This document shows, one piece after another, positions 1 to 7,041 of a stretch of DNA of 7,041 bases. Within the stretch, counting starts at the first letter, position 1. Every line of letters begins with the position of its first letter. Source of the stretch: a virus (Duplodnaviria > Heunggongvirae > Uroviricota > Caudoviricetes); the IMG/VR virus record IMGVR_UViG_2778261502_000011; one strand, given 5' to 3'. The notes beneath the pieces were generated by a model that ran no database searches, was not told the origin of the DNA, and saw only the letters and a program-made list of their open reading frames with translations. Made by a program: the position numbers and the translations under genes.

Positions 1-981
1 TTATAACGTCACTCCGCCTTTTAGTGGATTCAGAGCGACGGCATTTTGCAGATAGTCAGGCGCAAGGTGCGCATAGGCCATCGTCTGCTGAATGCTCGCA
101 TGTCCCAGAATCTGTTGCAGTGCGATTATATTGCCCCCATTCATCATGAAATGGCTTGCGAATGTATGCCGCAGGATGTGGGTTGCCTGATTGGGTGGTA
201 TATCAGGTTTCACTCTGCGTAAAATCCCGCAAAATTTCTCATAATCAACTTTGAATAATTTGGCGCTGGCCTCCTCTTTAACTTTTTTCTCCAGTTCCTC
301 AGAAATCGGCACGGTTCGCTTTTTACCGTTTTTGGTTTTCAGGAAGGTAACCCTGCAATTTGTAATCTGTGCTGGTTTTAGCGTGGCAACTTCCGTCCAT
401 CTTCCTCCAGTGCTCAGACATAAAAGCGCGACAAGTAAGTCATCACCAGCCAAAACATTTAACAGTTTTTCGATTTCTGCTTTTTCCAGGAACGTCATTT
501 CAGGGTTGGCCTCCGCCAGTGGCGGCAGTCCGTGAATTGGGTGTTGCCCGGAAAATTCATCCAATTGAATTAATTTTGTGAACATGCCGGATAATCGGTA
601 CATGTCACGGTTTATCGTTGCGGCACTGATACCATCACGTAGTCGCATGGAACGATAATCCATCAAAGCCCTTTTGCTCATCCTGCTCACTGGTATATCA
701 CCTATGCCGCTGATGGTTTTGAGTAGATGATTAAACTCTTTTGTTCCATGCTCGTGGTTTTGCCCGTGATATTTCCACCAGATGTCCAGCAACTCACTCA
801 AAGTCCGGCGGTCTGCTCGCTGGCCTCCCCATTCTTTCTGACTGGCATTGGCGATTGTGTATCGCTCAAATGCTAGTGCTTCAGCTTTTCTTTCGAATTT
901 CCTGCGGATGCGTTTTCCGTCGCGACCGCGAGGTCTAATGTCCACTTCATAGCGACCATCATCGAGCTTCTTAATTGCCAT
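1..981 (-). CDS. int: Tyrosine recombinase, P2-type phage integrase
   Basis: Minus-strand ORF with TAA stop at the reverse complement of 1-3. The ATG at the reverse complement of 979-981 is preceded by GGAGGG 7 nt upstream. The product starts MAIKKLDDGRYEVDIRP and carries the tyrosine-recombinase C-terminal signature (HILRHTFASH ... GH ... MAYAHL with the nucleophilic Tyr). An in-frame upstream ATG at 1011 (336 aa) has no Shine-Dalgarno sequence and is the less likely start. Confidence 0.93.
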   Translation of the reverse strand: MAIKKLDDGRYEVDIRPRGRDGKRIRRKFERKAEALAFERYTIANASQKEWGGQRADRRTLSELLDIWWKYHGQNHEHGTKEFNHLLKTISGIGDIPVSRMSKRALMDYRSMRLRDGISAATINRDMYRLSGMFTKLIQLDEFSGQHPIHGLPPLAEANPEMTFLEKAEIEKLLNVLAGDDLLVALLCLSTGGRWTEVATLKPAQITNCRVTFLKTKNGKKRTVPISEELEKKVKEEASAKLFKVDYEKFCGILRRVKPDIPPNQATHILRHTFASHFMMNGGNIIALQQILGHASIQQTMAYAHLAPDYLQNAVALNPLKGGVTL

Positions 982-1050
982 AAGAAAGCCCTCCGGCGCT
1001 GTATTCACCATCTTGGTAGCAAATGGTGAAAATGTAATCTTTATATAGAG

Positions 1051-3237: not shown

Positions 3238-3509
3238 GTATTCGTATCGAAATTGGCGAACGTTATGTCGTTACCAGTGACAGCTTTCAGTTTATTCTCC
3301 ACGAGAAAAAGAGAGCGGAAAGCGGTAAAAACGCCGGTCAGGAATGGCTGGCGGTGGTTGGTTATTACCCGAAATTAAGCCAGCTCGTTTCCGGCCTGAT
3401 GCATCACGATATTCTGACCGGAAGCGCAAAGTCTTTTGCTGATTTAAACGCGCAGGTTGAGCAACTCAGCAAGCGTTGTTCAGAGGCTTTTGGCTCATAT
3501 GGCCGTTAA
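3234..3509 (+). CDS. Hypothetical small protein (P2 orf83 position)
   Basis: 91-aa ORF; ATG at 3234 overlaps the preceding stop, with GGAGAA upstream. It overlaps the start of the gene A remnant by 11 nt. Confidence 0.6.
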   Translation: MSIRIEIGERYVVTSDSFQFILHEKKRAESGKNAGQEWLAVVGYYPKLSQLVSGLMHHDILTGSAKSFADLNAQVEQLSKRCSEAFGSYGR

Positions 3510-3787
3510 AGCCTCCGGGCGTTTTGTCCCTCCGTCAGCATTTGCCGCAGGCACCGGTAAGGCGTTTACCGGTGCTTATGCATGGAACGCGCCACGCGAG
3601 GCTGTCGGGCGCGAAAGACCCCTTACACGTGACGAGATGCGTCAGGTGCAAGGTGTTTTATCCACGATTAACCGCCTGCCTTACTTTTTGCGCTCGCTGT
3701 TTACTTCACGCTATGACTACATCCGGCGCAATAAAAGCCCGGTATCCGGTTGCTGATGAGTGGTCGGTTTTTTCAATTAAACAATAA
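3499..3787 (+). pseudogene. A: Remnant of replication initiator gene A: N-terminal ~85 codons fused out of frame to the last ~12 codons
   Basis: From the ATG at 3499 the product reads MAVKASGRFVPPSAFAAGTGK...YDYIRRNKSPV, matching my recollection of the P2 gpA N-terminus, and stops at 3754-3756 after 85 codons. In the +2 frame the next codons read YPVADEW...* (stop at 3785-3787), resembling the gpA C-terminus. The junction lies at the short direct repeat CCGGT / CCGGT (3740-3744 and 3746-3750). A roughly 760-aa protein has been reduced to under 100 aa. Confidence 0.7.
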
Positions 3788-3988: not shown

Positions 3989-4933
3989 ATGCCAACAGTA
4001 GTTTCACTTTTTTCTGGATGCGGTGGTTCCGATGCGGGGGTTCTGAGAGCTGGCTTTGATGTGCTTATGGCCAACGATATCTTGCCGTATGCGCGCGATG
4101 TTTATATTGCCAATCATCCAGAAACTGATTACATTTTAGGCAATATTGCTGATGTAACTACTTTTCCTAAATCTGATTTGCTAGTAGGTTGTTATCCATG
4201 TCAGGGATTCAGCCAGGGTGGTGCGCGTAAGGCCGATCGAAAAATTAATACTCTTTATTTAGAGTTTGCTAGAGCTTTAAACAATATAAAGCCTAAAGCT
4301 TTTATAGTAGAAAACGTGTCTGGTATGGTTAGAAAAAACTTCGAGCATTTGTTATCTGACCAGATCAGGGTTTTTACTGAAGCAGGTTATGCTGTTTCAG
4401 CAAAAGTTTTGAATGCGGCTGAATATGGAGTAGCGCAGGAAAGAAAAAGAATATTTATCGTAGGAATCCGTAATGATTTCAAAGTTAAGTACGAGTTCCC
4501 TCAGCCAACTCATGGGCCGGCGACTGGCGTCAACTATGTTACTATTAAAGATGCTATAGGGCATTTACCTGAATGGCCAGAAGGTGAATTTTATGATATG
4601 GGGTTCCATTGGTATTATATGTCTCGCAATCGTCGCCAAGATTGGGATCAAATTTCAAAGACAATAGTTGCTAATGCAAGGCATATGCCGTTGCATCCTA
4701 TCAGTCCTTCGATGGAGAAAGTAAGAACTGATGAATGGAGGTTTGTTGAGGATCGGAGAGCTCGCAGATTCAGTTTTCGAGAGGCAGCACTATTACAAGG
4801 GTTTGAGGATCTAGTGTTTCCCGAAACAAATGCTGCAAGTCTTGGCATGAAATACACGGTGGTTGGTAATGCAGTGCCTCCGCCGCTTTTTGAAGCTGTA
4901 ACGAAGGCATTGCCAATAGAATTATGGGATTGA
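3989..4933 (+). CDS. DNA (cytosine-5)-methyltransferase
   Basis: 314-aa ORF with a strong RBS. It carries the canonical C5-MTase motifs in the correct order: FSGCGG (motif I, AdoMet binding), PCQGFS (motif IV, catalytic Cys), ENV (motif VI), QERKR (motif VIII) and GNAV (motif X), with a short variable region between VIII and IX for target recognition. Confidence 0.92.
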   Translation: MPTVVSLFSGCGGSDAGVLRAGFDVLMANDILPYARDVYIANHPETDYILGNIADVTTFPKSDLLVGCYPCQGFSQGGARKADRKINTLYLEFARALNNIKPKAFIVENVSGMVRKNFEHLLSDQIRVFTEAGYAVSAKVLNAAEYGVAQERKRIFIVGIRNDFKVKYEFPQPTHGPATGVNYVTIKDAIGHLPEWPEGEFYDMGFHWYYMSRNRRQDWDQISKTIVANARHMPLHPISPSMEKVRTDEWRFVEDRRARRFSFREAALLQGFEDLVFPETNAASLGMKYTVVGNAVPPPLFEAVTKALPIELWD

Positions 4934-4940
4934 TAATCTA

Positions 4941-5930
4941 TTAAGGCTCTGGATTTAATGTATAAAGTTCTTCTTCAAATTCGCGAAACCAATCAGAGGT
5001 AGTTATCGCTTCCCATTGGTTTGCCTTATCAAGTAGATATATGATCCTCAACCTATCTAATAATAATACACCAGCGGTTGCATGTGTGCTTACCCATTCG
5101 CCATTTGCTTCCCGATAGAAAACAGGCGTGAACATTGTTGATGGATGCTGGAAAGCAATTTGGAAATAGGTGGTCAGTTTTAACACGTTAGCCTCTAATG
5201 TTTTGCTTGGCCACCCTGTTTCTTGTGCACCACATTGACCAAGAATTCCATAGTTGCTAGTTTGACCATCAGGAAATTCCACTGTAGCAATTAGGTCAAA
5301 CCCAGCATCACCAGATGTGGGAGCTTTATTTATTTCCCTTGTGTTTAAACTACAAACTCCAAGATCTTTTCCTAAAATTTGTAGAGCATTCCGAAGATTC
5401 GTTCCATAATATTTTTGCCTATCATCGGAGTTAGCATCAAAAATTCTTACGGTGCCATGTGCAGGTAAGAGAGAAATCATTGCAACTTTACATACTCTGG
5501 CAAAGCTCTTTGCCCAACGTTGTGCTGCTCCTCTAATCGACTTAAAGGATCTAAGTCTAGAGCAGCAAAGGAGAAAAACATATATTCTTTGTTGTTGGTT
5601 TAGATTTTCTTTAATAATTATCTCATCACCTGAAATTATAAATGGATATATCTTTCCAAGAGCGCTTTCTCTATATTCGAGTTGTGTCCAAACATCTTCT
5701 AGTTGCTCTTCAAAACGATCATTTCTCTCTGCGTCTCCATCAATTTCTTCTTCAAAATTACATTCTTCATCAATTTCTTCAACACTTGTCATGCCGAATT
5801 TTCTTACTGAATCTAAATCATTTTTATGCAGAGAGTTACGTCCGGTATAATTAATCACCGTGAGTAACTCGGCTAAATCTGCAAACAAATGGGGAGAGTT
5901 GGGATGCATAACTCCTACTTCAAAAGTCAT
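4941..5930 (-). CDS. Uncharacterised protein, downstream partner of the ParB-family gene (function unknown)
   Basis: Long minus-strand ORF (track: 4941..5936, 331 aa) with three consecutive in-frame starts (GTG 5936, ATG 5933, ATG 5930). The ATG at 5930 has GAGGT about 4 nt upstream. The start overlaps the stop of the upstream gene (5920-5922), so the two are translationally coupled. The protein has an acidic segment (EEIDEECNFEEEIDGDAERNDRFEEQLED). I find no Walker A motif and no catalytic motif I can name. Confidence 0.75.
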   Translation of the reverse strand: MTFEVGVMHPNSPHLFADLAELLTVINYTGRNSLHKNDLDSVRKFGMTSVEEIDEECNFEEEIDGDAERNDRFEEQLEDVWTQLEYRESALGKIYPFIISGDEIIIKENLNQQQRIYVFLLCCSRLRSFKSIRGAAQRWAKSFARVCKVAMISLLPAHGTVRIFDANSDDRQKYYGTNLRNALQILGKDLGVCSLNTREINKAPTSGDAGFDLIATVEFPDGQTSNYGILGQCGAQETGWPSKTLEANVLKLTTYFQIAFQHPSTMFTPVFYREANGEWVSTHATAGVLLLDRLRIIYLLDKANQWEAITTSDWFREFEEELYTLNPEP

Positions 5931-7041
5931 CATCACCTCTGCTATTTTTCTCTGCTATTTCAGAACCTATAAGCTTAATATGTTTATTGATTCTTCGTGC
6001 TACTTCATGAGCCTGTCTATCATACTCTACTGTGGCAACCATGCCTGCTGCATCTATCAAAGCCGCTTCAACTTGATAAAGTAACTGGAGAAAGTCCTTA
6101 GTAATATCAGATGTCAATTGGTAGGCCACTGCGAGTGGAGCCCCCATTCGGAATTGCTCCAATGCCTTAGGGCTACTGACAACAGCAGCTAATTCTCTTA
6201 AATTACGTGACTCTCCAACACGAGTTTTTTTATCCTCACCTTTTTTATATAACCACTCAGTTAGCTCTTTTATTTCTTTGTTCTTTAAGCTATTAGAGTT
6301 GATAATAGGATGACTTGGTATTGTGTCTCCATCGTCTTCGATTGAAACTCCGACAAATTGGCCTAACCGCTCATCAGCAAGTGCTGTTGATAATACTGAA
6401 AATTTAATCGTTTCTTCATCTAGTTTTTCAATACCATAAAAATCATTTTCTTTAATGATTTCATACACCGCTAAAGCGTCTAGGTTACGCTTGATATGAT
6501 CCCTACGACTGCCAATAGCTCTGGCAACCTCATAGTAGCGTAGCATCGGATCCTGATTTGCATTGGTATAATCAAAAAGCTGTTTAATATATCGAGCTTT
6601 TGATAAGGGCTCCCATTGTTTGACACCAGTAATATGTCTGAAACCAAGATACGGAAGAATCTCTTCTCTTGTTTGGCGCTCAATGACAGGAACACGATCG
6701 ACTGTATGTTTTGCATTTGATGCAATTTCTCGTAGTCGAGCACTTGGATTTTCACATAGTGTCGGATCGCGTAATAATTTAACTGCGGATAGGCGACGGT
6801 TTCCTTCAACTACAATGTACTTCCCCGGCGCGACACTGTCAGGAATGACAATCAATGGTTCTCCAGGGAAAAAACCATTTTCCGCAATAGCACTCATTAG
6901 ATCTTCGATAGATGTTGAGGTTGCTATGTAGTTAATCATTCCCAATTGGTCACGAGACACGCCTTCAGGAAGTCTTGGGTTTTCTGTGTCAAGTTCCAAA
7001 TCATCTAGCGGAACATAAAGTATTTCTGAATCAGCAATCAT
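5920..7041 (-). CDS. ParB/Spo0J-family protein (ParB N-terminal domain plus HTH) with an uncharacterised C-terminal extension of about 180 aa
   Basis: 373-aa minus-strand ORF whose ATG is the reverse complement of 7039-7041, at the window edge. The N-terminal ~90 residues fit the ParB N-terminal domain pattern: ENPR (res 20-23), SIEDLMSAIAENGFFPGEPLIVIP (box I-like) and YIVVEGNRRLSAVKLL (GxRR arginine patch, nt 6784-6807). A box III-like VIERQTREEIL and an HTH-like YYEVARAIGSRRDHIKRNLDAL (res ~168-192) follow, resembling the Spo0J recognition helix region. No HNH or other nuclease motif was recognised in the C-terminal part. Confidence 0.8.
   Translation of the reverse strand: MIADSEILYVPLDDLELDTENPRLPEGVSRDQLGMINYIATSTSIEDLMSAIAENGFFPGEPLIVIPDSVAPGKYIVVEGNRRLSAVKLLRDPTLCENPSARLREIASNAKHTVDRVPVIERQTREEILPYLGFRHITGVKQWEPLSKARYIKQLFDYTNANQDPMLRYYEVARAIGSRRDHIKRNLDALAVYEIIKENDFYGIEKLDEETIKFSVLSTALADERLGQFVGVSIEDDGDTIPSHPIINSNSLKNKEIKELTEWLYKKGEDKKTRVGESRNLRELAAVVSSPKALEQFRMGAPLAVAYQLTSDITKDFLQLLYQVEAALIDAAGMVATVEYDRQAHEVARRINKHIKLIGSEIAEKNSRGDDDF

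Follow-up and report, generated by a model that had tools for sequence, protein, structure and literature searches.

A ParB-fold protein paired with a putative Mrr/MspJI-like endonuclease and linked to a C5 methyltransferase in a P2-like prophage: a candidate restriction-modification-like cassette

The 7041-base stretch of DNA analysed here (the window; IMG/VR virus record IMGVR_UViG_2778261502_000011) is the left arm of a P2-like prophage. It carries a cargo of three genes that encode a C5 DNA cytosine methyltransferase, a protein of 331 amino acids (aa) that we call the partner, and a 373-aa ParB-fold protein, the main subject of this work. The original prediction, made from the DNA letters, had placed the ParB-fold gene in a prophage cargo slot and defence hotspot. 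This proved correct: the cargo lies between gpA and the portal gene Q, and the gpA-Q slot of P2-like prophages is a described defence hotspot (Rousset 2022). The predicted open reading frame (ORF) is also real. It is complete and corresponds to a RefSeq protein labelled “ParB N-terminal domain-containing protein”, with its ATG at the window edge and its promoter outside the window. The three cargo genes are:

3989..4933, plus strand: C5 DNA cytosine methyltransferase, 314 aa, WP_001143635.1 (Pfam, TIGR00675, and M.HaeIII alignment)
4941..5936, minus strand: partner gene, 331 aa from a GTG start, 329 aa as annotated (start 5930)
5920..7041, minus strand: ParB-fold protein gene, 373 aa, WP_000559726.1 (ORF, RefSeq, AlphaFold2 (AF2) model with Foldseek, and homologs)

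The partner gene shares 11-17 nt with the ParB-fold gene and converges on the methylase gene, the two stop codons lying 7 nt apart. Yersinia phage HQ103 and 46 further complete genomes of E. coli carry the cargo at 97% identity. Searches for parS-like or operator repeats and for promoters in and upstream of the cassette gave nothing above the shuffled expectation.

The ParB-fold protein is made up of the following parts, all encoded on the minus strand:

6676..7029, minus: ParB/Srx-type nucleotide-binding N-domain, residues ~5-122 (conservation, hhalign, and PD-Lambda-5_A match)
6973-6990, minus: box I-like D18xxN21P22R23 (DTENPR, residues 18-23; conservation)
6856-6879, minus: N55GFFxGEP62, an N-domain motif
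6793-6807, minus: box II, E79GNRR83 (conservation)
6442..6669, minus: helical DNA-binding region, residues ~125-200 (Foldseek, conservation, and hhalign)
6613-6651, minus: family-specific motif YLGFRHITGVKQW, in place of ParB box III (conservation)
6472-6516, minus: helix-turn-helix (HTH) IGSRRDHIKRNLDAL, residues 176-190 (Foldseek alignment to the ParB/KorB/Noc HTH)
5923..6441, minus: family-specific C-terminal half, residues 201-373 (AF2 secondary structure and conservation)
6196-6216, minus: GESRNLR with the invariant R279 (conservation)
5923-5943, minus: acidic tail ending in Phe (RGDDDF; consensus DDDxF), residues 367-373 (conservation)

The protein belongs to a family of more than 2000 homologs, typically about 370 aa long and 58-65% identical across gamma- and beta-proteobacteria. 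ENPR, EGNRR, and the HTH occur in the order that the original prediction gave. In 48 homologs, down to 24% identity, the residues of boxes I and II (D18, N21, P22, R23, E79, G80, N81, R82, and R83) were at least 95% conserved; therefore, these motifs are not chance matches. When the protein was aligned by hhalign to a B. subtilis Spo0J sequence, N21-P22-R23 fell on Q-P-R and G80-N81-R82-R83 on G-E-R-R.

Matches to profiles of the ParB group ranged from marginal to strong. Pfam ParB_N (PF02195) gave E=0.09 and 13.3 bits against a cut-off of 26.3, TIGR00180 (parB_part) gave 5e-8 with a score of 32.8 that falls under its cut-off of 58.45, PHROG ParB-like families reached 1e-7, and the PADLOC model PD-Lambda-5_A covered residues 9-192 with a best E of 1.6e-28. 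Neither DUF262 (GmrSD_N) nor DndB, the two families that had been named as alternatives to ParB, gave a Pfam match to the window protein at E<=1; one distant homolog matched GmrSD_N at E 0.015. A search of the PDB with the sequence profile of the family gave a marginal match to box II alone (E 0.02), and a comparison of structures was therefore needed. The AF2 model (predicted local distance difference test score, pLDDT, 88) had as its top Foldseek matches in the PDB Caulobacter ParB-CTPgS 7bm8 (E 1e-6), KorB 8qa9, Myxococcus ParB 7bnk, Noc 7ol9, and Spo0J 1vz0. The matches to ParB, KorB, and Noc had E values of 1e-6 to 6e-4 and a probability of 1.0, and extended for 220-270 columns over the N-domain and HTH. 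Sulfiredoxin and PadC ranked far lower. By comparison of predicted with known structures, the ParB fold of the protein is settled, as the original prediction of a ParB/Spo0J-like protein had supposed.

The pocket departs from that prediction in one respect. Where a box III-like segment had been claimed, homolog alignments revealed an invariant Y131-L132-x-x-R135-H136-x-x-G139-x-x-x-W143, specific to this family, in place of the ENLQR of ParB. Of the motifs likened to those of a cytidine triphosphate (CTP) pocket, boxes I and II are conserved and box III is remodelled. The protein shares with the CTP-clamp ParBs (ParB/Spo0J, Noc, and KorB) the Q/N-P-R of box I and the G-x-R-R of box II, and these proteins are its best structural matches. 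It differs from them in its YLxxRH motif, in its C-terminal half, and in its scores under the Pfam and TIGR cut-offs. In addition, no ParA or parS was detected, and the genes that accompany it encode a nuclease-like protein and a methylase.

The extra C-terminal residues, put at about 180 by the original prediction, number about 170. They are well conserved within the family and mostly helical with one beta-hairpin in the AF2 model; comparison with homologs and Foldseek gave no match to known proteins. The acidic tail is confined to the gamma/beta-proteobacterial clade. The last residues of the single-stranded DNA-binding protein SSB (DDDIPF) are similar, and the tail could serve to dock the partner or host proteins. 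We also considered a HEPN domain in the C-terminal half and rejected it. The segment RRINKH fits Rx4H, but its His is not conserved in 46 homologs, and hhalign to the HEPN-half ORF of Vibrio phage ValB1MD-2 gave a probability of 0.06%. Separately, the 715-aa PADLOC candidate model PDC-M38A matched residues 43-339 (E 2e-21) and so reached into the C-terminal half. By this match, a longer, possibly fused relative exists among the PADLOC defence candidates; a literature search found no paper on PDC-M38.

The partner has an N-terminal helix that bears D20 and E23, a winged helix (~residues 30-112), and a putative core of the Mrr/MspJI-like PD-(D/E)xK type. Its putative catalytic residues lie in these segments:

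5202..5315, minus: putative catalytic segment (conservation and MspJI alignment)
5286-5315, minus: SGDAGFD214LIA, within the putative catalytic segment
5220-5243, minus: LGQ234CGAQE, within the putative catalytic segment
5202-5213, minus: WPSK245, within the putative catalytic segment

In 48 homologs with 21-48% identity, D210, D214, and Q234 were invariant and K245 was at least 90% conserved; D20 and E23 were also invariant. The family is large (~1200 clusters at 50% identity), and Pfam, NCBIfam, and PADLOC assigned no family to the partner at E<=1, even when 49 members and distant homologs were included. Pfam Mrr_cat did not match it either. On the other hand, structure and profile searches pointed in one direction. 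The AF2 model (pLDDT 87) had MspJI as its top Foldseek match in the PDB (E 0.02, probability 0.91), followed by BsaWI, and a PDB search with a profile of 48 divergent partners gave MspJI as its single best match, at a weak E of 0.059. The partner motif SGDxGxD214...GQ234C aligned onto SGDGGVD334...GQ355AK357 of MspJI. Catalysis by MspJI depends on D334, Q355, and K357, and Mrr shares this D...QxK variant. At the position of K357 the partner family has A or G, and K245 follows eleven residues on.

In all, three independent searches, each weakly scored, reached MspJI and the same motif. Because these methods converge, we read the partner, with moderate confidence from sequence and model, as a winged helix joined to a divergent Mrr/MspJI-like endonuclease. 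The similar size, the N-terminal winged helix, and the predicted C-terminal D...Q-type PD-(D/E)xK core are shared with Mrr and MspJI, whereas the A/G in place of the QxK Lys, the extra D20/E23 helix, and the ParB-fold partner are not. A further difference is that Mrr and MspJI cut modified DNA while the window partner is linked to a methylase. The original prediction had allowed that the ParB-fold protein itself might be the nuclease. That role is better assigned to the partner. In structure, the ParB-fold protein is closest to the clamp-type ParBs and not to DUF262 or DndB.

The methylase had been overlooked by the original prediction. It matched Pfam DNA_methylase at 5e-65 as well as TIGR00675, and it aligned end to end with M.HaeIII, target-recognition region included (E 3e-48). 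All of its motifs are intact (FSGCGG, PCQ, ENV, QERKR, and GNAVPP), and from the alignment a GGCC-like specificity may reasonably be inferred. GGCC sites were counted in the window for a depletion that restriction might leave (17 sites against 15.3 expected), and the count is uninformative.

With all three genes described, the cassette can be compared with PD-lambda-5, a compact and validated prophage system listed as “ParB/HEPN, methyltransferase” and “RM+Abi”, which was cloned in an mrr-deleted host (Vassallo et al. 2022). Could the window cassette be a PD-lambda-5 member that acts through a HEPN RNase effector? The ParB-type N-domain and helical/HTH region (~200 aa) are homologous in the two, as seen from the PD-Lambda-5_A match and from hhalign to AS1_27 (98.8%, residues 7-200). 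AS1_27 is the 486-aa A protein of Marinobacter phage AS1, a bona fide PD-lambda-5 system, and is matched by the A models over most or all of its length. Both systems also encode a DNA methyltransferase and occur in P2-like or temperate phages. However, the homology ends at about residue 200. The A protein of PD-lambda-5 has a HEPN half, whereas the C-terminal half of the window protein is unrelated to it, with the hhalign probability of 0.06% given above and no conserved Rx4-6H. PD-lambda-5 has two genes, and the window cassette has an obligatory third, the winged-helix/nuclease-like gene, which lies outside all PADLOC models. The methylases differ as well. PD-lambda-5 encodes a co-directional enzyme of the PD-Lambda-5_B family, annotated in a Vibrio phage as an adenine methylase; the AS1 B protein matched PD-Lambda-5_B at 4e-103, and bona fide B proteins score 1e-103 to 1e-118. 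The window enzyme is a convergent C5 methylase with DruM and MTase_II as its top PADLOC matches, and PD-Lambda-5_B was not among the best 25 of its 63 matches. Membership in PD-lambda-5 is therefore very unlikely in our judgement. Judged by sequence, the window cassette is a sister architecture that shares its ParB module with PD-lambda-5. PADLOC models recognise this N-terminal module only, and the locus would not be called.

In Vibrio phage ValB1MD-2 (L059 2947-5386), the PD-lambda-5 A protein is split into a 252-aa ParB ORF and a 265-aa HEPN ORF, followed by a Dam-like methylase. This shows that the ParB module is workable as a separate polypeptide.

The gene neighbourhood was surveyed at 46 species-representative loci, where we called ORFs, searched them with three protein profiles, and assigned other neighbours by Pfam. 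The partner was present in all loci whose downstream DNA exists (43/43). These span Proteobacteria, Bacteroidota, Planctomycetota, Verrucomicrobiota, Acidobacteriota, Riflebacteria, and Bdellovibrionales. The earlier proposal that the ParB-fold protein is coupled to a second protein is thus upheld by every locus that could be scored. A C5 methylase was adjacent in 20 of the 46 loci, including relatives from Planctomycetota and Verrucomicrobiota at 24-27% identity. Phosphorothioation (dnd) genes took the place of the methylase in three others, and ten were too short for their modification neighbours to be judged. The three dnd loci are:

L036 5974-12876: dndB-C-D, same strand (Pfam)
L046 5992-11746: dndA-E-D, convergent (Pfam)
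L047 5974-9537: DndC-type phosphoadenosine phosphosulfate (PAPS) reductase, convergent (Pfam)

The trio of ParB-fold gene, ~330-aa gene, and convergent C5 methylase was also found beside pnp in Methylomonas, in integrase-flanked islands of Burkholderia and Pseudomonas, and in Pseudomonas phage vB_PaeM-D14A. In many loci the gap to the methylase was 0-20 nt, with the genes convergent or in one operon. The three genes therefore travel together between genomic contexts that are unrelated.

These neighbourhoods also bear on whether the protein is a ParB of the partition or maintenance kind, either misplaced or a relic, that aids segregation of the prophage or an episome. Its fold and HTH are closest to those of partition ParBs, and some homologs carry the NCBI name “chromosome partitioning protein ParB”. 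Against this, the Pfam and TIGR partition models score under their cut-offs, P2 integrates, and the putative partition cargo that Rousset lists in the P2 hotspot is a different, StbA-type cassette. There is no ParA: the partner has no Walker A motif, and a ParA-type protein with a Walker A motif (KGGxGK[ST]) was found near only one of 55 loci, 2.8 kb off and unrelated. The conserved neighbours are instead the nuclease-like protein and the methylase. A partition role is thus extremely improbable. The original prediction had held that this is not a partition cassette and had staked itself on two points, a ParB-fold match and relatives other than ParA-linked partition proteins; on both, the data agree with it.

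The original prediction had suggested a DNA-binding or clamping module turned sensor or effector. As in type II restriction-modification (R-M) systems, a methylase with intact motifs is here tightly linked to, and co-transferred with, a nuclease-like gene. The methylase is conserved across phyla, and our reading therefore shifts from a sensor of unknown logic to an R-M-like cassette. On balance, and with modest confidence, we favour the view that the ParB-fold gene is part of a three-gene, horizontally mobile, R-M-like defence cassette, in which CTP binding, nuclease activity, and a role in defence are putative.

In such a cassette, the methylase would mark the DNA of host and prophage, most probably at sites like GGCC. 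The ParB-fold protein would bind DNA through its HTH, probably as a dimer, and its conserved NPR/GNRR/RH pocket would serve as a nucleotide-triphosphate (NTP) switch that responds to CTP or another NTP. This switch may let the protein clamp or scan DNA and so read its mark status. On unmarked incoming DNA, it would recruit or license the partner endonuclease to cut. On marked DNA, it would be released or inactive, much as DndI is with phosphorothioate. A lysogen would thereby exclude superinfecting phages.

A more specific version of this idea is that the pair is a novel kind of restriction enzyme, in which an NTP-gated ParB sliding clamp scans DNA in one dimension for epigenetic self-marks and licenses a separate Mrr-like nuclease. 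The same module would then be plugged onto C5 methylation in most lineages and onto phosphorothioation in those with dnd genes. We put this forward tentatively, as a possibility that is rather less than probable.

Several observations weigh against the R-M-like reading. The first concerns the pocket. Box III (E-N...R), which is required for CTP hydrolysis by ParB, is not conserved in the family, and a 2025 survey of ParB-CTPase folds, which found binders of CTP, ATP, and GTP, reported that nucleotide specificity is not predictable from sequence or AF3. Because of the remodelled box III and this unpredictable specificity, we read the conserved motifs as those of an NTP pocket and not specifically of a CTP pocket. 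The second concerns linkage. Thirteen of the 46 loci, mostly from Bacteroidota and Riflebacteria, have no DNA-modification gene within ~3.5 kb; therefore, the pair is not always lethal without a linked methylase. Third, coliphage Wphi carries a trio in the same hotspot (L057 96-3266), made up of gp98 (ParB-fold), gp96 (partner), and Mth (methylase). Its Mth is 76% identical to the window methylase, whereas gp98 and gp96 are only 34% and 25% identical to their counterparts. Marking and cutting therefore trace back to modules of different history, with exchange of modules in the hotspot, and the link to modification could be less strict than that of classical R-M. Finally, the cassette is listed in Table S5 of Rousset 2022 and was not among the systems tested there. 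A strict R-M reading is hardest to reconcile with the solitary pairs, which keep two rivals alive.

One of these rivals makes the partner the sole restriction endonuclease (REase) of a Type II R-M system and the ParB-fold protein a KorB/VirB-like NTP-dependent repressor in the role of a C protein, by which nuclease expression would be delayed when the cassette arrives in a new cell. The protein contains an HTH, its best structural matches include KorB, a CTP-dependent repressor clamp, and its gene stands first in the operon, like many C-protein genes. We nevertheless consider such a role unlikely. The pair is kept in the 13 loci with no methylase to coordinate with, and the gene overlap suggests stoichiometric co-production. 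Moreover, a length of 373 aa, a conserved 170-residue C-terminal half, and a nucleotide pocket exceed the needs of a C protein, and conserved operator-like repeats were not found in or upstream of the cassette.

The other possibility is that the pair is self-sufficient and Type IV-like, recognising a feature of foreign DNA such as modified bases, and that the methylase and dnd genes are independent cargo with anti-restriction or other epigenetic functions. This would account for the 13 loci where the pair stands alone among housekeeping genes. It also agrees with the resemblance of the partner core to MspJI, which is modification-dependent, and with the sensing of modified DNA by the ParB-superfamily NTPase domains of GmrSD and SspE. 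On the other hand, 20 loci that range from E. coli to Planctomycetota have a C5 methylase right next to the pair, and tight linkage that persists over 24-100% identity, with co-transfer, is not expected of unrelated cargo. A nuclease dependent on 5-methylcytosine would also be self-destructive beside a C5 methylase. Self-sufficiency of the pair therefore appears improbable to us.

Among the 13 modification-free loci, the pair lies by itself among housekeeping genes (metH, acrB, a penicillin-binding protein gene, and sugar transferases) in Bacteroidota and Riflebacteria (L039-L045, L055, L037, and L053). Upstream of the pair there is an Mrr_cat gene in L043 and a DpnII/MboI-like REase in L053. 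One of the 13 adjoins type I hsdM/hsdS: in a Methylococcaceae metagenome-assembled genome (L012 935-8140), the pair is directly 3' of an hsdM-like gene (NPPF motif) and hsdS. These may be an alternative modification module for the pair, or the site may be a mere defence island.

Coming back to an R-M-like function, the window pair as we read it resembles GmrSD/BrxU, SspE, and DndI in having a ParB/Srx-fold NTPase that is coupled to a nuclease and reads DNA modification. DndI, in which a ParB-superfamily (DUF262) domain is joined to HNH, cuts DNA without phosphorothioate; the mark stimulates its ATPase and frees it from self DNA. DndI pairs with the self-marking module DndBCDE, and three relatives of the window pair adjoin dnd genes. 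These relatives fit a comparative-genomics reappraisal which argues that the true restriction components of Dnd modification modules are varied nucleases, fused to DNA-binding domains, that the modules recruit. The differences are structural. GmrSD/BrxU, SspE, and DndI are single polypeptides with DGQQR-type DUF262 and HNH (DUF1524), whereas the window cassette has a clamp-type ParB with an HTH and an EGNRR motif, and a separate PD-(D/E)xK-like nuclease candidate. Menshen (NsnABC) is similar in that a ParB-superfamily protein with a DNA-binding domain is the proposed DNA sensor and the nuclease effector is separate. It differs in its DUF262-type ParB, its ABC ATPase transducer, and its mostly RNase effectors, none of which occur in the window cassette, and the PADLOC Menshen models had no match in the window.

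A literature search found no paper that characterises a system of ParB, nuclease, and C5 methylase, nor one on the Wphi mth gene; a transposon-sequencing (Tn-seq) paper that might have borne on the essentiality of the methylase concerned other R-M systems.

CTP switches of the ParB type are known to act in the segregation of chromosomes and plasmids, in nucleoid occlusion, and in gene silencing. To our knowledge, the defence systems described so far use the more distant DUF262 branch of the ParB fold, fused to nucleases. It is thus unusual that a clamp-type ParB (N-domain and HTH) is the invariant partner of a separate restriction-nuclease-like protein. The cassette explains the recurrent “ParBc + DNA_methylase + hypothetical” entry of P2 hotspot catalogues, which current defence-finding tools do not call, and it is found repeatedly in the P2-like prophages of E. 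coli, in which it would help decide which phages superinfect. If the proposed logic is true, it offers a compact and genetically tractable three-gene system for the study of how an NTP-gated clamp discriminates marked from unmarked DNA. If the pair does scan DNA as a sliding clamp, it would be the first ParB clamp cycle in self/non-self discrimination.

The remainder of the window is made up of prophage genes. These include a C-type repressor, cox, B, orf80-83, and the start of gpA, all ahead of the gpA-Q cargo, and:

1-1011, minus strand: integrase (window ORFs and annotation)

The window is 100% identical to the P2-like prophage of E. coli ATCC 8739 (NZ_CP043852) except for a gap in gpA. In that genome the trio, together with ~420 bp upstream of it, lies within 3849922-3853600. 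At ~3742-3744 of the window, 1,985 bp (L001 6958-8942 of the ATCC 8739 prophage) are absent, and what remains of gpA is its first ~100 codons (ORF 3457-3756) and its 3' end. The gap is either a true deletion, in which case the prophage would be replication-defective, or a splice from construction of the window.

A further trace of the cassette was seen in Yersinia phage L-413C, which is used in plague diagnosis (L056 207-1199). Its truncated ParB-fold gene is 62% identical to the window protein up to ~residue 303 and divergent thereafter. It abuts orf91 and gpA, with neither partner nor methylase beside it, and looks like the remnant of a decayed cassette.

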